From IMG/VR virus record IMGVR_UViG_3300017971_000152: 37,474 nt of DNA. One strand, given 5' to 3'. Under the pieces are notes generated by a model. The model made no database searches, was not told the DNA's origin, and saw only the letters and a list, made by a program, of their open reading frames with translations. The translations under genes and the position numbers were made by a program. Positions 10,584 through 37,474 of the stretch are shown here, piece by piece (position 1 is the first letter of the stretch; each line of letters starts with the position of its first letter). This DNA comes from a virus.

Positions 10584-10730
10584 ATGCCGGCTGACAGAGT
10601 GGTTGGTCAGAGCGCACGCAACATATGGCCTTGCACGCCAGGCGCCAACGGTCATTGCACCGTCAACACGCCGGCAAGGGCTGAGGTTGTCGTGCCCTGG
10701 CCACCCTCTGTGGCCGGCTTTTGCAAGTGA
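10584..10730 (+). CDS. Possible 48-aa ORF
   Basis: The codon style matches the native genome, but the RBS is weak. It ends at the hairpin ggccac-cctct-gtggcc plus a T-run (10699..10722). Confidence 0.25.
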   Translation: MPADRVVGQSARNIWPCTPGANGHCTVNTPARAEVVVPWPPSVAGFCK

Positions 10731-10738
10731 GGGTATCA

Positions 10739-11599
10739 ATGAAAATCTCGAAACTAAAGTCAATATTAGATGCTCATACTAGATGGCTGATGGGCGATAA
10801 TACAGGCACACGCGCGGACCTCAGCAACGCGGACCTCCGCAACGCGGACCTCCGCAACGCGGACCTCCGCAACGCGGTCCTCCGCAACGCGGACCTCCGC
10901 AACGCGGTCCTCAGCAACGCGGACCTCAGCAACGCGGACCTCAGCTACGCGGAGCTTAGCAACGCGGACCTCCGCTACGCGGTCCTCCGCAACGCGGTCC
11001 TCCGCAACGCGGACCTCAGCTACGCGGACCTCAGCAACGCGGTCCTCAGCAACGCGGACCTCAGCTACGCGGACCTCAGCAACGCGGACCTCAGCAACGC
11101 GGACCTCAGCAACGCGGACCTCAGCAACGCGGACCTCAGCAACGCGGACCTCTGCAACGCGGTCCTCCGCAACGCGGACCTCAGCTACGCGGACCTCCGC
11201 AACGCGAAAGATTTACTGAAACCTATGGGAGTTGAACAGGGCAACTGTTACTGGAAACGCTTGAACGCGGGGCTCTGCAACAACGGCTACCAGTACCATG
11301 TCGGACACAACCGGCTGCGTGATGGCGAGATATTCGCTGCCGACGAACGGGTCTTGTGTTCATATCCAGGCTTTCATTTCGGCTCGCGGTCGTGGTGTGC
11401 GGTCAACTTTCCAGAGAGGCCGCTTGAGGCGCGGGTGCGGATACCTGACGGGGCGCAGATAAACGAGCCCTGGGCGACTGACGGTAAGGCGAGCGCGGAC
11501 ATGATTGAGATATTACAGGTTTTCGAGGTTGCGACTGGCAAGGACATGACAGACACATATAGGAGCACGGACCATGAGAAAACAGAGCCAAATGCCTGA
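10739..11599 (+). CDS. Pentapeptide-repeat protein: about 27 [NY]A[DV]L[SR] repeats plus a roughly 130-aa Cys-containing C-terminal domain
   Basis: The N-terminus KSILDAHTRWLMGDNTGTRADLSNADL is typical of pentapeptide-repeat proteins, followed by the repeats. SD is GAGGG. Word and codon usage is clearly foreign to the rest of the genome. Confidence 0.9.
   Translation: MKISKLKSILDAHTRWLMGDNTGTRADLSNADLRNADLRNADLRNAVLRNADLRNAVLSNADLSNADLSYAELSNADLRYAVLRNAVLRNADLSYADLSNAVLSNADLSYADLSNADLSNADLSNADLSNADLSNADLCNAVLRNADLSYADLRNAKDLLKPMGVEQGNCYWKRLNAGLCNNGYQYHVGHNRLRDGEIFAADERVLCSYPGFHFGSRSWCAVNFPERPLEARVRIPDGAQINEPWATDGKASADMIEILQVFEVATGKDMTDTYRSTDHEKTEPNA
10811..11215. repeat. About 27 tandem 15-bp DNA repeats (aacgcggacctcagc and close variants) encoding the pentapeptide repeats
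   Basis: Read directly. Synonymous positions are nearly invariant between units. Confidence 0.95.
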
Positions 11600-11819
11600 C
11601 TGGGTGTATGTACCTGGCGAGGGTGACGAGCCTATTGTTGAGTGGTGTTGCCGGCATGTGTCACGAGGTGACGCCGGCAAGGACCACCCGCGGCAGTGCC
11701 GGCGCTCAGCACAACGAGGTTTCAAGGTCAAGGTGTGTGGTCAAACGCTGTACGTATGTTGGCAACACTACGACGCCATTGAGAGGTACACCACGCCACC
11801 TCTGAGGTACCAGTCATGA
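11574..11819 (+). CDS. Small Cys-rich hypothetical protein
   Basis: ATG 11574 follows a canonical AGGAG that lies inside the foreign segment. An alternative ATG is at 11592. CC...C...C...C pattern. Confidence 0.5.
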   Translation: MRKQSQMPDWVYVPGEGDEPIVEWCCRHVSRGDAGKDHPRQCRRSAQRGFKVKVCGQTLYVCWQHYDAIERYTTPPLRYQS

Positions 11820-14533: not shown

Positions 14534-15196
14534 GTGTCATTTGGTGAGTTGGTTGCACGCGCCTGTGTATTTCAGGGGTGGTGTCAGCCAGTGCCTCGTC
14601 AAACCCAACGAAAAGCGCCACACACATTGCCTGAGGACGTCAACGAGTTTGAGGGCAAACACCTCGAGTTTATTGCGTTACGTGGTGCCGGTCACTTGTC
14701 TCAGGCGGCCATTGCACGCCGGTTGAGAGTCTGTGAGGACACTGTCAGACGTTGGGACCGTCACCCGCCATTTGCCAAACACATACGTGACCAGTGGGCC
14801 ACCCACGCCAAACACAACGTGACCTTGGCCGGTGAGTTGCTCAACCGTGCTCTCATCAAGCTCGAGAGGTGGCTGAGGCTCGAGCTCGAGGTCAAGGCAC
14901 GCAAACGTGGGCATGAAAACGTGCTGACCGTGGGTGAGCTCATGCGTGTGGTCACCTTGCTCAAGGACATTGCGCCGGTACCTGGTCAAGCCGGCAAGGG
15001 GGTGCCTGGTGACAACGGCCACCTCAGCGAGCTCACAGTGGCAGAGCTACAGGTTGAGCTTGCAAGAGAGCGTGACGCGGCTGAGAGACTCACGGCGCTG
15101 TTTGATAAAGGCGGCAGTCAAGGACGTGTCGTCAGTGAGGTCGAGAGTCATTGGCCGTTGCGTGGTGCAAAGTCTTTTAGGCCGTCAGACTCATGA
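14534..15196 (+). CDS. terS: Terminase small subunit (HTH DNA-binding)
   Basis: HTH is LSQAAIARRLRVCEDTVRRW, followed by a coiled coil. It sits directly upstream of terL. The start is uncertain: GTG 14534, or GTG 14591 after AGGGGTGG. Confidence 0.6.
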   Translation: MSFGELVARACVFQGWCQPVPRQTQRKAPHTLPEDVNEFEGKHLEFIALRGAGHLSQAAIARRLRVCEDTVRRWDRHPPFAKHIRDQWATHAKHNVTLAGELLNRALIKLERWLRLELEVKARKRGHENVLTVGELMRVVTLLKDIAPVPGQAGKGVPGDNGHLSELTVAELQVELARERDAAERLTALFDKGGSQGRVVSEVESHWPLRGAKSFRPSDS

Positions 15197-15209
15197 CCTA
15201 CACCTGGCC

Positions 15210-16574
15210 ATGTTCACGTTTCAAGAAATGCGCCGTGGCCTGTGGTCACTGTTGCTGACGGCACCAGGACACACCAAGACAACCACGTGCATACTCAACG
15301 GTATTGTGTATGACGTGCTCATTGACCCCAACACTCGAGAGGGGCTCATTTCTCGTGTTGACGGTGTGTCAGAGCGCATTGGCCAGGCGGCACGTGACAG
15401 CCTCGAAACTGAAGAAATTGACTGGGTGTTTGGGCCACAACGTGGCTCTGAGGACTGGGGCAAAGAGAGTTGGACCGTACGAGGCCGCACACGCATTTTC
15501 AAAGAGCCCACATTTGCGGCACTGAGTCTCAAGGGTCAGGTGCTCAGTGGGCACTATAAGCGTTTGTACCTCGACGACATATACCAACCTGAGGACCAAC
15601 GCACGCACAGTCAGCGTGAAACAGTCAAGGGCCATTTCTACCAAAAGGCCAGTACCAGGTTGGCAGACGACGAGCCTGACCCAACCCTGTTTTGGGTTGG
15701 TGTGAGGGTCAATCCGTACGACTTGGCCGGTGAGGTTGAGGCCAATGACCCTCACTTTAGAGGTAACGTCATGGTGTTGCCGGCACTACCTGACAAGGGG
15801 TCATGGGCACGCAAGGTGTTTGGGCCAGTGCTATGGCACGAGGTACGCACCGCACTTGACCTCATACAACAGCGTCAGGCAATGGGGCCGGCGCCATTCA
15901 ACGCACAGTACCAGTGTGACCCCAAAGAAATGACTGGCCGGCTCATACAGCGCCGGTGGCTCAGGCCATACGAGCTCAGAGCCATTGACCTGAGTGACCT
16001 CACCGTGTTTGTGGGAGTGGACCTGGCCGCGGCACTCGACGACACCATTGAGTACGAGGGTGACGCTGAGGGTGAGGTGCCCAACGACGCTGAGAGCTCT
16101 AAGTTTGCAACTGCCACCATTGGCATTGCCCACTTTCACAGGCCGGCCACTGAGTGGCGCACGTTTCTGTTGGACTGTTACACGGCCAGGCTCACGCTCG
16201 ACGAGCAAGTTGACGCCATACGCCGTGCCAATGACCGTTTCCTCAACCGCCGGCGCACGTTTGTTGAGTCAAATGGGTACCAACTCGTCATGGCACAGCA
16301 CGCACGCTCGAGGGGTGTCACGAGGGTCATGCCAATACACACCACTCAAGGCAAGCCTCGAGGCAAGGGTAAAACCGCCACCATTGCCGGCGCACCATAC
16401 CAGGACTTGGCCGCCAGGTGTCAGCGTGGTGAGTTTTTTGTTCGGCCTGAGCTCGAGGTGGCCATACAACAGTTGTGTGACTTCCCTGACGAGCCCAACG
16501 ACATTGTTGACGCCATTGTCATTGCACTGAGAGGTGCGCTGAGAGAGCCAAGGCCAGTGACGGTGCCGGCATGA
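15210..16574 (+). CDS. terL: Terminase large subunit
   Basis: Walker A-like APGHTKTT, Walker B YKRLYLDDIY, and nuclease acidic motifs VFVGVDLA, ESNGY and NDIVDAIVIAL. I chose ATG 15210, just after the terS stop. The ORF-track start at 14934 overlaps terS. Confidence 0.85.
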   Translation: MFTFQEMRRGLWSLLLTAPGHTKTTTCILNGIVYDVLIDPNTREGLISRVDGVSERIGQAARDSLETEEIDWVFGPQRGSEDWGKESWTVRGRTRIFKEPTFAALSLKGQVLSGHYKRLYLDDIYQPEDQRTHSQRETVKGHFYQKASTRLADDEPDPTLFWVGVRVNPYDLAGEVEANDPHFRGNVMVLPALPDKGSWARKVFGPVLWHEVRTALDLIQQRQAMGPAPFNAQYQCDPKEMTGRLIQRRWLRPYELRAIDLSDLTVFVGVDLAAALDDTIEYEGDAEGEVPNDAESSKFATATIGIAHFHRPATEWRTFLLDCYTARLTLDEQVDAIRRANDRFLNRRRTFVESNGYQLVMAQHARSRGVTRVMPIHTTQGKPRGKGKTATIAGAPYQDLAARCQRGEFFVRPELEVAIQQLCDFPDEPNDIVDAIVIALRGALREPRPVTVPA

Positions 16575-20929: not shown

Positions 20930-21874
20930 ATGGCGGCAAAATATGACGGTGGCTCAGGGTCAGTTGCAGACGTCCTTGAGACACATTACGACGCCGTGTT
21001 TGCTGACGCCATAGTGCGCACCTCTGACATACTCAGGTACATACCCATTGAGAGTGGCAGAGGCATACTGGGGTGGAAAGTGCGCTACCAAGGCAACACC
21101 TCAGTGGGCTCACAGGCTGAGGACACGACGGCACCAACCGCGGGTCACCAGAGTTTCAAGTCAGCCACATTGGCATGGGCACGCAACCAGGGTGTCATGC
21201 AAGTGTACGGGTTGGCTGAGGCAATGGCAGAAAACGAGGGGGCACTCATTGACCTCGTCACTGACGAGGCTGAGGGTGTCATAAACGACTTGTCTGACGC
21301 CATATGCACTCAGATTTGGACCGGCACCGGCGCCAATGACATTGTTGGGCTCATACAGGGTGTTGACGACGGCTCGACATATGCCACGTACGCCGGCATA
21401 AACCGGCTCACGTACACCTGGCACCAGTCATACCGTGACCACAACAACGGTACACCGCGGCCTGTTGACATACCCATGTTTTACCGCATGTACCGCATTA
21501 TGAGGAAACGTGGCGCTCGTATTTCGTTGGTCATTGGTGACCCTGACCAAACCACGGCGTACGAGCAACTGTTGACTCAGACGGTGCGGTACAACCCGCA
21601 AGGTGGCGGTGGCGCGGGTGAGGCCGTTGGCGTTGGCGGTGACGAGGTGCGTTTCAAGAAAATACCTGTTGTTGATGACCCCGCGGCGCCTGACAACAAG
21701 CTCTATTGGCTTGACACTCGTTGGGTCAAGTACCGTGAGCTCAGGCGTTTCAAGGTCAAAGAGCTTGGTGCCACTGACGACAGTGACCGTTTCCAGGTCA
21801 ACAACTACTCTCAGCTACAGGTCAAGGACTGCAAGAAACAAGGTGTGGTTGAGGACTTGGCGCCGGCGGCATAG
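20930..21874 (+). CDS. Major capsid protein (probable HK97 fold)
   Basis: 314 aa, after the scaffold gene, with a strong SD (GAGGGGGG). This is the only TAG stop seen. Called from synteny and size. Confidence 0.75.
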   Translation: MAAKYDGGSGSVADVLETHYDAVFADAIVRTSDILRYIPIESGRGILGWKVRYQGNTSVGSQAEDTTAPTAGHQSFKSATLAWARNQGVMQVYGLAEAMAENEGALIDLVTDEAEGVINDLSDAICTQIWTGTGANDIVGLIQGVDDGSTYATYAGINRLTYTWHQSYRDHNNGTPRPVDIPMFYRMYRIMRKRGARISLVIGDPDQTTAYEQLLTQTVRYNPQGGGGAGEAVGVGGDEVRFKKIPVVDDPAAPDNKLYWLDTRWVKYRELRRFKVKELGATDDSDRFQVNNYSQLQVKDCKKQGVVEDLAPAA

Positions 21875-34721: not shown

Positions 34722-35240
34722 ATGGGCAAGCTCTTTGGCTCAATAGGTGGCACCTCAAACCCCAAGCTCGTTTTCAACGTGTGGGGTGAGCTCGTCGAGG
34801 CTGACACGGTGGCCAGGCCGCAACAACTGTTGTGGGCATGGGACCGTGACAGTGAGCTCAAGAGCTTGGTGGATTACACAGAGCTCGAGGTCAACCTGAG
34901 GCACCGGCTCAACCTGACGTTTGTGTACCGTTGGCTCAGCCGTGACGACGAGCTCACATGGCAACTGGCGGCACAGGCTGACGAGGTGTTGGTGTGGCCA
35001 CACAAGGACTGTGAGAGGTACTGGCCCATGAGGGTTGAGGGACCGTGGCGCCGGCAATGGTCAGCCGGCAGAGCCACCGGCCACCAAAATGAGGTGCGCC
35101 TGGTGGCGCTCAACCTCGAGAGGGTCACGTACGACTTGGGCAACCTGTTTGCATTTGGCGTGGCGGGTGGCGGTTTTGGGGCCAGTTGGCCGCCGGCCAT
35201 GCCGTATGTTGGGGGTGGCACCAGTGGCCGGTACCCATGA
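34722..35240 (+). CDS. Hypothetical tail-module protein
   Basis: 172 aa; SD is GAGG. Confidence 0.6.
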   Translation: MGKLFGSIGGTSNPKLVFNVWGELVEADTVARPQQLLWAWDRDSELKSLVDYTELEVNLRHRLNLTFVYRWLSRDDELTWQLAAQADEVLVWPHKDCERYWPMRVEGPWRRQWSAGRATGHQNEVRLVALNLERVTYDLGNLFAFGVAGGGFGASWPPAMPYVGGGTSGRYP

Positions 35241-35253
35241 CGTGACACCTAAT

Positions 35254-35886
35254 ATGAGGCCAATGCCTGAGTACGGCTCACGCAACCCCGCGGTGCGTTG
35301 GCTGTTTCGCCGGCGGCTCGAGGTGGCCGGCCAGTTTGTGGCTGAGCTCGAGCCTGAGAGCCTCATTGACGTTGGGTGCGGCAAGGGTGAGTTTGTCAGT
35401 GCTGTGGCTCATATGCCGTGGCGACCACGCCGGCTCAAGGGGGTTGACCTACACGGTGAGGTGTACTTGCTCAATGGTCATGTGCCAGGTGTTGAGTTTG
35501 ACACTCAGGACGTGCGCCGGCTCAACGAGCTCGAATTGGGGTGGCATATGGTGACGTGCCTTGACACTCTCGAGCATGTACCTGAGTTGCAACGTGCCGT
35601 GCTCGAGCTCAACCGTGTGCTCTGTGAGGGGGGCCATTTGCTGACCTGTCAACCAACTGAAACCTGGTGGTACAAGGTACTCAGGCTAATTGCCAAGGGT
35701 AAATGGTCAGCCGTGACGGCGCCGGCGTCAGGCCGGCACTACCATACGGCGGCAGAGGTACACCACAGAGTTACGAGGTGCGGTTTCAACCTGGTGAGCT
35801 CGAGGAAACTGCCAAGGCCGCCGGCTGACCTATTCCACATAAACCTGTACGTCAAAGAGGTGAGCTCACATGTCTTTTTGCATTGA
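35254..35886 (+). CDS. Class I SAM-dependent methyltransferase (Methyltransf_11/23-like, not a DNA methyltransferase type)
   Basis: Motif I is LIDVGCGKGEF, with an acidic residue in KGVDL. The post-I/III region is GWHMVTCLDTLEHVP...LNRVLCEGGHL. No DPPY/NPPY or PCQ/ENV motifs. An alternative GTG start is at 35242. Confidence 0.75.
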   Translation: MRPMPEYGSRNPAVRWLFRRRLEVAGQFVAELEPESLIDVGCGKGEFVSAVAHMPWRPRRLKGVDLHGEVYLLNGHVPGVEFDTQDVRRLNELELGWHMVTCLDTLEHVPELQRAVLELNRVLCEGGHLLTCQPTETWWYKVLRLIAKGKWSAVTAPASGRHYHTAAEVHHRVTRCGFNLVSSRKLPRPPADLFHINLYVKEVSSHVFLH

Positions 35887-37363
35887 CATACCTGACAACG
35901 CCAACGTCGAGTACGTGAAAATAGCACGGCGCACATGTCAAGACTTTGTCGGGTGGCCACTCGTACAGCGGGTGACTGGCTTCTTGTACCAGGGTGCCGT
36001 GTACTTTGACAAGAGCCTCAAGGTGAGCGCCAATTTCACAGCCAAGGCGTGGTCACTGTACTACCACAACGAGCTCACAGGCCACAACTCGAGGTATGTG
36101 CCCATTGGTGAGGTGTGCCTGGTGGTGGTGTACGAGGACTCAGGTACTTACTACGTACGAGGTGTGGCTGAAATGACGACACCCATGTTGGCTGAGGGTG
36201 CATACGAGCACGACTGTGACTTGGCTGTTGAGGCCGGTGACTTTATTGGTTTGTGGGTGGCTGAGGGGTCCAATTTCACGGTGTACGCTGACAACTACGA
36301 CGACAACCCGCCATGTGACTTGTATTATTTCAACGATGCTGACGTGAAACCGTACGCCACGCAAGCCTTGGGCACGAGCCCAAGTGACGTGTACGCCACG
36401 CGCATGTTGAGCATTGCCGTGCGCTCTGACGTCGAGGGTACACCCGCGTACGAGACAAACAACTACCGTTGCGTTGGCGCTGACCGTGGGCCGTTTCTGT
36501 TTGAGCTTGGTGTCAATGCGTGGGCTGATGGCAACGTGGTTGACGCGGCCAATGCTCTCAACGACAACAGCGGCAACTACGCATACGTGGCTGACGGTAA
36601 CACTGGGTACATATATTGTCAACTGGCCAGTGGCGTCAACAACCGTATGCTCGAGCGCATAAGACTGCAAACGAAACAGTACGGCGCCGGCGTGGTCACC
36701 GTGTATTGCACGGGCACTGACGCTGTGGGTAGTTTGGCCGGCGCTGAGGGCATTGCAGAGGGTGACTGGCAAGAAATTGTGACCATACCAGGTGACTTTG
36801 ACGACGACACGAGCGTGTTTGAGTGGTGCATACACGTGGGCATACCAACCATGAGGTGGTACCGTATCAAGATTGAGGCCAGTGGCGCCAACCAACGTGT
36901 GTACCAGTTTGCCTCGTTTCACATGGGGTCAATCACTGACGACACCATTGACCTGACACCTCATGACGGCCTCTTGCACCGTATATGGGTAACGTCTGAC
37001 CTGGTGACCCTCAAGCTCACGGCGGCTGTTGGCTCAGGTGACTCAGAGGCTCAGGTTGACGAGGCCACAGTAACAGAGCTTGGGTACTTTGACCCTGGTG
37101 AGTATGTTTATTTGAGGCACGCCAACAACCAGTACAAACGGCTCGTGCTCGACAACCCCGCAACTGAGACTGGGCCACCCAAGAAACTCAAGTTTACAAC
37201 CACGGTTGGTGAGGCTTTCAACCTTGGTGAGAGTGCTGACCAACAACTGGGGGTGTTTCAGGTTGAGGCATATGACGCCAACGACAACCTGGTGAGCACC
37301 TCACCGTGGCTCTGCAACTATGGCGCATTTGACGTCAGGCTTGGTGAGTACGCTGACGCATGA
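35870..37363 (+). CDS. Tail fibre / receptor-binding protein with a discoidin or galactose-binding-like domain
   Basis: 497 aa. RMLERIRLQTKQYGAGVVTVYCTG...WQEI...RWYRIKIEASGANQRVYQFASFHM resembles an F5/8-type-C / CBM fold. Overlaps the methyltransferase gene by 17 nt. Confidence 0.65.
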   Translation: MSFCIDIPDNANVEYVKIARRTCQDFVGWPLVQRVTGFLYQGAVYFDKSLKVSANFTAKAWSLYYHNELTGHNSRYVPIGEVCLVVVYEDSGTYYVRGVAEMTTPMLAEGAYEHDCDLAVEAGDFIGLWVAEGSNFTVYADNYDDNPPCDLYYFNDADVKPYATQALGTSPSDVYATRMLSIAVRSDVEGTPAYETNNYRCVGADRGPFLFELGVNAWADGNVVDAANALNDNSGNYAYVADGNTGYIYCQLASGVNNRMLERIRLQTKQYGAGVVTVYCTGTDAVGSLAGAEGIAEGDWQEIVTIPGDFDDDTSVFEWCIHVGIPTMRWYRIKIEASGANQRVYQFASFHMGSITDDTIDLTPHDGLLHRIWVTSDLVTLKLTAAVGSGDSEAQVDEATVTELGYFDPGEYVYLRHANNQYKRLVLDNPATETGPPKKLKFTTTVGEAFNLGESADQQLGVFQVEAYDANDNLVSTSPWLCNYGAFDVRLGEYADA

Positions 37364-37474
37364 GGTGACAACATGAGAGTGCCGCACAACAACCGCCACA
37401 CATACTGCCCACACAGCCTGAGGGTGCTGTTTCTGACGCTGACCCTTGGCCTGACCCTGTTGTGCGGCACCTCA
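37352..37474. repeat. Right copy of the 123-bp terminal direct repeat
   Basis: Identical to 1..123. Confidence 0.9.

Follow-up and report, generated by a model that had tools for sequence, protein, structure and literature searches.

A probable single-gene import encoding pentapeptide repeats and a rIIB-like C-terminal domain in the word-avoiding genome of an orphan phage

The 37,474-nucleotide virus sequence analyzed here (IMG/VR record IMGVR_UViG_3300017971_000152), the whole of which is referred to as the window, represents a complete tailed-phage genome with a unit length of 37,351 bp; positions 1-123 are identical to positions 37352-37474, and the genome is circular or terminally redundant. 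It encodes a terminase, a portal protein, an SU10-type capsid protein and a replisome organiser, as well as the subject of this report, an open reading frame (ORF) at 10739..11599, which an initial annotation had described as a pentapeptide-repeat gene that breaks the ‘word taboos’ of the surrounding genome, i.e., that carries short DNA words avoided elsewhere. The data presented below suggest that this ORF is probably a horizontally acquired single-gene cassette, encoding a repeat scaffold and a rIIB-like domain, in the genome of an orphan phage. The features of the locus are as follows:

10727..10732, plus strand: native-style Shine-Dalgarno (SD) sequence TGAGGG, serving the putatively imported gene (style defined from the upstream regions of 23 native starts)
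10734..11571, plus strand: compositional island, the putative imported cassette, which starts 5 nt ahead of the ATG and extends as far as the donor-type SD sequence
10739..11599, plus strand: ORF of 286 aa, comprising an N-terminal helix, a pentapeptide-repeat beta-helix and a rIIB-C-like (divergent DUF7666) domain, as predicted
10739..10810, plus strand: N-terminal 24 aa (MKISKLKSILDAHTRWLMGDNTGT), predicted helix, AT-rich, with the lowest native-likeness (score -1.01)
10811..11206, plus strand: tandem array of 15-nt units, consensus AACGCGGACCTCAGC, specifying 26 pentapeptide repeats (repeat finder, PF00805)
11207..11563, plus strand: conserved C-terminal domain, aa 157-275, with motifs YWKR, CSYPGFHFGSRSWC, NEPWATDGKASA and DMTDTYR
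11560..11565, plus strand: donor-type SD sequence TAGGAG, holding the taboo words TAG and GGAG and serving the native downstream gene
11564..11599, plus strand: read-through tail STDHEKTEPNA plus stop; the donor stop appears to be lost and the ORF enters the native downstream gene
11574..11819, plus strand: native downstream ORF of 81 aa, Cys-rich, whose start overlaps the end of the island gene

The assigned start, ATG 10739, agrees with the SD sequence TGAGGG, with the N-termini of related proteins and with an independent gene call in a second assembly (L030), an alternative in-frame TTG being located upstream at 10721; the stop codon occupies 11597-11599. Tandem Repeats Finder returned a 15-nt repeat of 26.3 copies with 91% matches at 10813-11206, and residues 25-156 consist of 26 in-register pentapeptides (NADLS, NADLR, NAVLR and others) with invariant Ala and Leu, where approximately 27 had initially been counted. 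The window protein matches PF00805 with an E-value of 7.9e-50 (166 bits versus a cut-off of 20.2), which identifies it as a pentapeptide repeat protein. The C-terminal domain of approximately 130 aa is likewise present, with the motifs previously quoted for it. Replication-origin iterons were considered as the source of the 15-nt repeats and rejected, as the array is in frame, matches PF00805 (E-value 8e-50) and is conserved at the protein level in the family.

The genome in which this ORF resides exhibits a severe depletion of particular words. Compared to the numbers expected from base composition, the window contains 18 copies of ATC (451 expected), 35 of GAT (517), 41 of TAG (517), 54 of TCC (545), none of TTAA (75), one each of GATC (139) and GAAG (175), and eight of GGAG (242), while CTCC occurs 11 times versus 146 expected. 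The taboo words form reverse-complement pairs, so that avoidance is strand-symmetric, and it is seen in all three reading frames (ATC 8/2/1, GAT 12/1/9); since it is frame-independent, the taboo represents a DNA-level constraint rather than a codon preference. Within the native genome, i.e., outside 10734-11571, depletion persists at successive word lengths (observed/predicted): 3-mers fall below the dinucleotide prediction (GGA 161/611, TCC 36/305, GAT 24/278), 4-mers below the 3-mer prediction (CCGA 14/116, TCGG 4/76, GGAG 5/77, GAAG 1/44) and 5-mers below the 4-mer prediction (AGCTG 1/44, CAGCT 2/28, GCTGG 6/51, CCAGC 1/25, CCCGG 1/23, AACTT 0/18), and only 2772 of the 4096 possible 6-mers are used. 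Among the palindromic 6-mers, 42 of 64 are missing from the whole genome, and others are over-used (GCCGGC 177 times, CTCGAG 102, GAGCTC 87, TGGCCA 50 and GGCGCC 45); TGAC occurs 615 times, 4.4-fold above expectation. As to the source of the taboo, avoidance of multiple restriction systems or of protospacer-adjacent motifs may be offered as guesses. The upstream regions of the 23 native starts carry TGAGG, AGAGG or GAGGG and never GGAG, and GGAGG is absent from the window, so that the SD sequence itself has apparently been reshaped by the taboo. No DNA methyltransferase was recognized among the ORFs scanned and PADLOC returned no matches; a class-I S-adenosylmethionine-dependent methyltransferase is encoded at 35035-35886 among the tail-region genes (Methyltransf_23, E-value 1.9e-13).

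The native genes have few relatives. Among 5.8 billion proteins, the terminase (14934-16574) matches only itself and the capsid protein (20930-21874) matches itself and one protein of 28% identity, while most native ORFs are without a Pfam or PHROG match. Relatives of the recipient phage were also sought via the upstream ORF, the terminase, the downstream ORF and the capsid gene, yielding only identical copies and the one 28%-identity capsid, and a megablast search of the 9-14 kb region against INPHARED phages matched nothing.

Against this background, the ORF at 10739..11599 is indeed a compositional island, as first proposed. Using a set of taboo 4-mers derived from the genome without the candidate ORF, the ORF was found to contain 49 such words per 300 bp, the genome maximum, compared to a median of 2, a mean of 2.6 and a next-highest value of 8 elsewhere; 28% of all taboo positions of the genome fall within this 2.3% of its sequence. 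Enrichment extends to the C-terminal half, which is not repetitive (27-31 per 300 bp), so that amplification of the repeats does not account for the whole effect, even though CGGA, CTCC, TCCG and GTCC have been amplified in situ by the array. The first taboo word is located at 10734 and the last at 11568, with nearly clean flanks, such that the k-mer and codon comparison suggested by the initial annotation yields profiles distinct from those of the genome, with sharp borders at 10734-11568. Native style resumes at about 11571, not at about 11592 as stated there. The individual words listed in that annotation are present, with some corrections of detail: ATC occurs in the island region at 10735, 10745 and 11364 (10734 and 10746 had been given, each off by one); GGAG occurs at 10951 and 11562, as given, and at 11228, where 11233 had been given; CTCC is common (10 copies) but is confined to the Arg-type units (...GACCTCCGC / ...GTCCTCCGC) rather than spread through every unit. 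The several copies of GAT noted between 10771 and 11510 number 11, from 10769 to 11509. The use of otherwise rare codons is also confirmed, with GAT accounting for 4 of 30 Asp codons and TTA for 3 of 37 Leu codons, versus 2% each in native genes; GCG accounts for 35 of 39 Ala codons, versus 17% in native genes. Dynamic programming indicated that synonymous recoding could reduce the 102 taboo 4-mers of the gene to zero, while native genes are near their own minimum; as all 102 are synonymously removable, the taboo words are not retained by protein constraint.

Homologues of the ORF are widespread in phages of ordinary composition. The C-terminal 131 aa returned 424 homologues with roughly 55-79% identity, and an exhaustive profile search delineated a compact family of 50 cluster representatives. 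The 27 family loci that were fetched are situated on phage contigs of 29-63% GC with normal word usage (~42 taboo 4-mers per 300 bp, in gene and flanks), and the phages concerned are siphovirus-like with genomes of 20-60 kb. In a 4-mer native-likeness score, the C-terminal coding region of the island (-0.43) falls between the family (-0.84 +/- 0.18) and native DNA (+0.46 +/- 0.07). The pairing of pentapeptide repeats with the C-terminal domain was observed in 23 of 27 cluster representatives. The gene is the only one common to the window and these contexts, including when the native downstream ORF is considered, and there is no conserved neighbour across the family, any flanking gene being common to at most four of the 27 loci. 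Among 185,579 species-representative genomes, the family is all but missing: there were four matches, all on contigs of metagenome-assembled genomes from unrelated phyla; by these sequence criteria, it is a phage-borne cargo gene. A recent horizontal acquisition of the ORF, as the initial annotation had suggested, is thus well supported by homologues in unrelated phages, the lack of shared flanks, the orphan character of the native genes, the synonymous removability of the taboo words and the sharp borders at SD cores.

The borders indicate how the insertion may have occurred. The island gene begins 5 nt behind the native SD sequence TGAGGG. In ordinary phages, genes of this family usually end with Tyr-Arg, a stop codon and AAGGAG, followed by the ATG of the next gene; the equivalent segment of the window reads TATAGGAGcacggaccATG, i.e., TAT AGGAG cacggacc ATG, in which the donor stop is gone and the ORF runs 11 codons into the next native gene. 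As both junctions are situated at a GAGG/GAG core, we infer that insertion took place between a native SD sequence and its ATG by short-homology recombination. A scan of 9.8-12.4 kb revealed no promoter or terminator, and none appears to have been imported. The downstream ORF (11574-11819) bears the pattern CC..H...C...C..C and may encode a zinc-ribbon protein; one weak relative, with 53% identity over 28 aa, was found on an IMG/VR contig (L005).

The locus was recovered in three other assemblies from two projects and different samples (ENA and JGI), which match the window at 100% identity over the junctions that they cover: L006 (ERZ27256783) spans the 3' junction, L031 (ERZ27256798) spans the 5' junction, and L030 (JGI 3300028840) spans both junctions and the whole gene. 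The only difference between L030 (3619-4449) and the window (11067-11160) is 30 bp within the array, i.e., 24 versus 26 units with an NADLC unit replaced, with no mismatches in the other 6.4 kb. The capsid gene is identical in seven assemblies, all on contigs of 20-50 kb. An empty-site pattern returned no matches in metagenome_contigs and viral_contigs; the native 24-nt flank alone also returned none, and the result is thus uninformative rather than a sign of absence. This native flank was unmatched in both collections although the JGI contig 3300028840 carries it.

These data bear on two alternative accounts of the island. That it is an assembly chimera, in which a fragment of another phage was joined at the repeat, can be given next to no weight: two short-read contigs do end inside the tandem array, but each junction is reproduced in two further assemblies, L030 traverses the entire gene, all array k-mers of at least 99 nt are unique, and the SD and stop regions of the island gene are shared with native genes. 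A long-resident gene, whose foreign words are held by selection or by exemption from the purge (the repeats might, for example, act at the DNA level, or co-infecting phages might repeatedly convert the gene), is unlikely. The gene is present in all sampled assemblies, and its C-terminal coding region contains fewer taboo words than that of every family member (26.7 per 300 bp versus a family mean of 42.7 and a minimum of 31.4, among 26-28 members); moreover, TTAA, GATC, GAAG, CTTC and CTAG are lacking there, compared to a family mean of 7.1 and a minimum of 3 for these words. Such a low count could mean a long, stalled amelioration. The first impression of a partial amelioration, based on the absence of the five strongest words and the lowest density in the family, was however weakened by GC control (residual z = -2.3) and by a test of all 256 4-mers with a leave-one-out null (island rho 0.22 versus 0.01 +/- 0.11), in which one of 28 family members reaches the island value. 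Partial amelioration is thus suggestive (p about 0.07) and the gene appears essentially un-ameliorated. Long residence is further opposed by the removability of every taboo word without cost to the protein, by borders that match the gene plus SD sequence within a few bases, by the lack of a second copy or template anywhere in the genome, and by the in situ amplification of four taboo words in the array. The initial annotation had also seen a fit between the proposed decoy function and the ability of the gene to carry avoided words; as an explanation this is weak, since the DNA would be exposed ahead of any synthesis of the product and the taboo is maintained elsewhere in the genome.

The most conserved part of the protein is its C-terminal domain of ~120 aa, which retains at least 35 invariant columns (including YWKR, CSYPGFHFxSRSWC, NEPWATDGKAS and DVTDQYR) across phages of very different composition. 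The window domain does not match DUF7666 even at an E-value of 10, while one close relative (P0101) reaches 28.6 bits versus a cut-off of 27 and others score 14-25; more distant family members pass the DUF5758 cut-off or combine DUF7666 with DUF4116 repeats. On these sequence relationships, the domain probably represents a divergent DUF7666 subfamily. A contig end truncates at least one of the members of 113-124 aa (P0101/L004), and these were therefore not taken as evidence of a stand-alone form of the domain, for which the distant P0166 (127 aa) is a possible example. A separate AlphaFold2 (AF2) model of the domain (mean predicted local distance difference test, pLDDT, 77; predicted template modelling score 0.74) found nothing significant in the PDB, whether by sequence or by fold, an ADP-ribosyltransferase (5zj4) being weakly matched (E-value 0.35, probability 0.51, TM-score 0.45) and cereblon/Lon-N also appearing among the matches. 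In the viral structure library BFVD, the fold corresponds to that of the domain terminating many ankyrin repeat and DUF4116 proteins of giant viruses, and mimivirus L26 (probability 1.0, query-normalized TM-score 0.55-0.64, root-mean-square deviation (rmsd) 2-3 A), while Foldseek matched rIIB-annotated proteins of T4-like phages more weakly (E-value 3-5e-3, query-normalized TM-score about 0.55).

The link to rIIB was pursued by profile-profile alignment with hhalign, as follows:

Subfamily profile (A3) versus T4 rIIB: probability 1.4%, E-value 0.036, 21 columns (signature motif only)
Diverse family profile (A4) versus T4 rIIB: probability 19%, E-value 1.2e-3, 37 columns
Diverse family profile (A4) versus 12 rIIB C-termini (A5): probability 83.3%, E-value 8.7e-6, 94 columns

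The 12 C-termini of A5 derive from T4-like phages, Felixounavirus, Kuttervirus, Seunavirus, Schitoviridae and Streptomyces phages. The 94 aligned columns comprise the whole domain, including the terminal DVT[DE]Q[FY][KR] tail (DVTDQYR in the family, EDVTEQFK in T4), and the score of 43.2 exceeds those of 120 column-shuffled controls (at most 22.8; z 12.4) and of a reversed control (11.2). The domain and the C-terminal domain of T4 rIIB thus appear, though not with certainty, to be remotely homologous. That region of rIIB (about residues 210-312) is itself without a Pfam model, and the rIIB N-terminus has weak helix-turn-helix (HTH) matches (HTH_7, E-value 5.6e-5; T4 rIIB, L038 2466-3404). A total of 2,828 phage records contain rIIB-like C-termini, among them those of Schitoviridae and Streptomyces phages, in which the C-termini form part of much longer proteins. 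The window protein exhibits neither the full-length rIIB architecture, i.e., an HTH-like N-terminus and a middle region, nor an adjacent rIIA, its N-terminus being composed of pentapeptide repeats. Since it differs from rIIB over the N-terminal two-thirds and no rIIA partner turned up among the 30 native ORFs scanned, the protein is, by sequence comparison, a rIIB domain relative and not a rIIB orthologue. No paper linking the DUF7666 domain to rIIB, or mentioning DUF7666, was found.

The phage protein rIIB protects against prophage-induced early lysis. It has been described as an anti-defence protein that is needed against RexAB, by a mechanism that is unclear, and as itself a trigger of bacterial gasdermin/CARD systems (PMC10312443); it is also sensed by Tmn, for which residue 219 was the single T2/T4 difference examined (PMC13001434). 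By our own count in alignment A5, residue 219 falls within the region homologous to the family domain, shortly past the WK motif. The counter-defence role proposed in the initial annotation is therefore plausible through the conserved C-terminal domain, given its homology to a protein described as anti-RexAB, and not through the DNA mimicry that had been invoked.

The repeat domain was analyzed with this DNA-mimicry proposal in mind, according to which an acidic pentapeptide beta-helix copies B-DNA and titrates a host restriction complex or gyrase, in the manner of MfpA, Qnr and AlbG. An AF2 model of the protein (pLDDT 79, from an alignment of 47 sequences) predicts a right-handed beta-helix with one strand per five residues, at pLDDT 80-95 for residues 60-156; the low-confidence helix modelled at residues 30-58, where the alignment has a gap, is probably artefactual. 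The predicted fold agrees with that part of the original proposal and, at 26 units or about 6.5 coils, the array of the window copy is long as well as acidic (net charge -9, pI 4.2), with a weak, generic similarity to Qnr and MfpA. The charge, however, resides entirely in units 14-26, an amplified and polymorphic NADLS run, units 1-13 being of net charge 0. Across 117 family members, arrays have a median of nine units (about two coils) and a median net charge of -1 (range -10 to +4), 41% being neutral or positive, so that the predicted helix is not accompanied by a conserved charge; a long and acidic array is a feature of the window copy alone. With arrays this short and a charge that varies, a long acidic rod cannot be the basis of whatever function the family has conserved. 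The curated NCBIfam models were far from reached (Qnr 52.1 bits versus a cut-off of 240, MfpA 44.3 versus 360, QnrB 46.7 versus 460), and Foldseek aligned the modelled repeat domain with 2j8k, 3n90 and 2o6w (rmsd 0.8-1.4 A), its best matches being pentapeptide proteins of a generic kind, either cyanobacterial or designed, while QnrB1, MfpA and AlbG matched weakly. Furthermore, the family is defined by its C-terminal domain, whose fold is also paired with ankyrin and DUF4116 scaffolds, and this globular domain occupies the place where Qnr and MfpA carry a C-terminal dimerization helix. PHROGs returned only repeat-driven matches, to families of unknown function, and no phage pentapeptide protein with a demonstrated DNA-mimic or anti-defence role was found in the literature. 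Taken together with the retention of the taboo by the rest of the genome, DNA mimicry as the basis of the gene is distinctly improbable, although this one expanded copy could conceivably have gained such a property.

The pattern of variation within the array calls for a separate explanation. Among the 26 DNA units (10811-11206), 24 changes occur at 104 A sites versus two at 286 other sites; those 24 fall at four adenines of the 15-nt unit, are all non-synonymous and alter outward-facing residues. Hypermutation by a diversity-generating retroelement would be confined to adenines in this manner, but such an origin is very remote and the array was rejected as a target of one: the template repeat occurs nowhere in the genome, no reverse transcriptase was identified among the 30 ORFs scanned, outward-facing residues are expected to vary in any pentapeptide helix, and about five to seven independent changes would suffice if unequal recombination had shuffled the variants (an estimate; binomial p about 0.02). 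Arrays throughout the family are homogeneous at the DNA level (lag-15 identity up to 0.98), and by their sequences they evidently expand, contract and homogenise quickly.

Comparison with known systems places the gene among familiar kinds, i.e., mosaic phage cargo genes and pentapeptide proteins, to which the relationship to the rIIB domain is added here. In common with T4 rIIB, the window protein possesses a homologous C-terminal domain of ~100 aa (hhalign 83%) with the shared motifs WK, D...CSxG[LF]H[VF]xSxS[YW] and terminal DVTxQ[FY][KR], and its gene would likewise be an early, non-structural phage gene, as judged by its position in the early/replication region; it differs in carrying a pentapeptide beta-helix in place of the N-terminal two-thirds of rIIB (HTH-like and middle regions), in the lack of a detected rIIA partner and in belonging to siphovirus-like rather than T4-like phages. 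The same small beta fold is found in DUF7666 (PF24703), DUF5758 and the giant-virus repeat proteins; relatives of the window protein reach the DUF cut-offs whereas the protein itself does not, and the giant-virus proteins, which share the design of a repeat scaffold followed by this terminal domain, are from viruses of eukaryotes and employ ankyrin or DUF4116 scaffolds instead of pentapeptide repeats. With Qnr, MfpA and AlbG the window protein shares the right-handed pentapeptide helix and, in this copy, its acidity, in contrast to its sub-cut-off scores, its additional globular domain, its lack of a dimerizing C-terminal helix and the unconserved charge and array length of its family. The type III effectors NleL and SopA also carry a pentapeptide helix as the N-terminal module of a two-part effector (fold match E-value about 3e-5), and the SopA helix binds a target protein; the C-terminal domain of the window protein is not a HECT-like ligase, however, and the likeness is an analogy of design only. 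Finally, the gene resembles phage morons and mosaic single-gene cassettes in being an accessory gene of foreign composition between two native genes, with sharp borders, junctions at ribosome-binding sites and close homologues in unrelated genomes that share no flanks. It differs from morons in lacking its own promoter or terminator and in a contrast with its genome far stronger than the usual shift in GC content or codon usage, because the recipient genome is so unusual.

We therefore favour the reading given at the outset, i.e., the probable horizontal acquisition of a single-gene cassette. The donor would have been the gene pool of ordinary phages, and the cassette would have entered between a native ribosome-binding site and the ATG formerly served by it, the probable route being recombination at the short GAGG/GAG homology of SD sequences. 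With it would have come the ATG of the island gene and the donor-type GGAG site at the 3' end, which the following native gene now uses, and the foreign word usage would persist because too little time has elapsed for the purge acting on this genome. The product is envisaged as a modular early protein, in which a pentapeptide beta-helix precedes the conserved domain of ~120 aa and in which the slippage-prone 15-nt array would allow length and surface residues to change quickly within the family. The rIIB-like domain may engage the same conserved target as rIIB and safeguard infection against abortive-infection or exclusion systems of the Rex type, with the repeat helix serving as an exchangeable, fast-evolving scaffold or recognition surface and not as a DNA mimic; this functional part, drawn from sequence relationships, is put forward tentatively and falls somewhat short of an even chance.

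Several observations weigh against this account. Homology to rIIB is remote, at 23% identity and 83% probability, the profile of the window protein's own subfamily reaches only 39%, and no Pfam model links the family domain and rIIB. No rIIA partner was seen, in that none of the 30 native ORFs scanned yielded a GHKL-ATPase-type Pfam match. The presence of the same fold in giant viruses may indicate a common activity broader than counter-defence, and Rex-like systems are not known in the eukaryotes that giant viruses infect. The collections searched contain no relative of the recipient phage, and hence offer neither a comparison of the locus nor an empty-site variant. Since the gene seems fixed in the seven sampled assemblies, ‘recent’ is to be understood relative to the time needed for the purge and not relative to the sampled population.

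The island has value for understanding the genome-wide taboo itself, for which it represents an internal control: normal and purged sequence share one molecule in several assemblies, and the taboo is therefore real biology rather than a sequencing or assembly artefact. The island also shows that the taboo is not an instantaneous, per-site lethal filter, and it constitutes a natural amelioration experiment in which the order of word loss could reveal the agents behind the purge. As regards the protein, the relationships described here connect the C-terminal domain of T4 rIIB with a widespread, unannotated phage family (pentapeptide repeats plus a DUF7666-like domain) and with the ends of many giant-virus repeat proteins, and a small, separately folding and conserved rIIB-like domain would offer a handle on the action of rIIB and on what Tmn and the gasdermin/CARD sensors recognize. 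A more far-reaching and doubtful proposal is that the rIIB C-terminal domain is a pan-viral effector module, borne on interchangeable repeat scaffolds (pentapeptide, ankyrin and DUF4116), of which the island would be a recent anti-abortive-infection capture by an orphan phage otherwise reliant on extreme word avoidance; if this is true, the order in which taboo words are lost, with TTAA, GATC, GAAG and CTTC already gone, would show which words are truly lethal.

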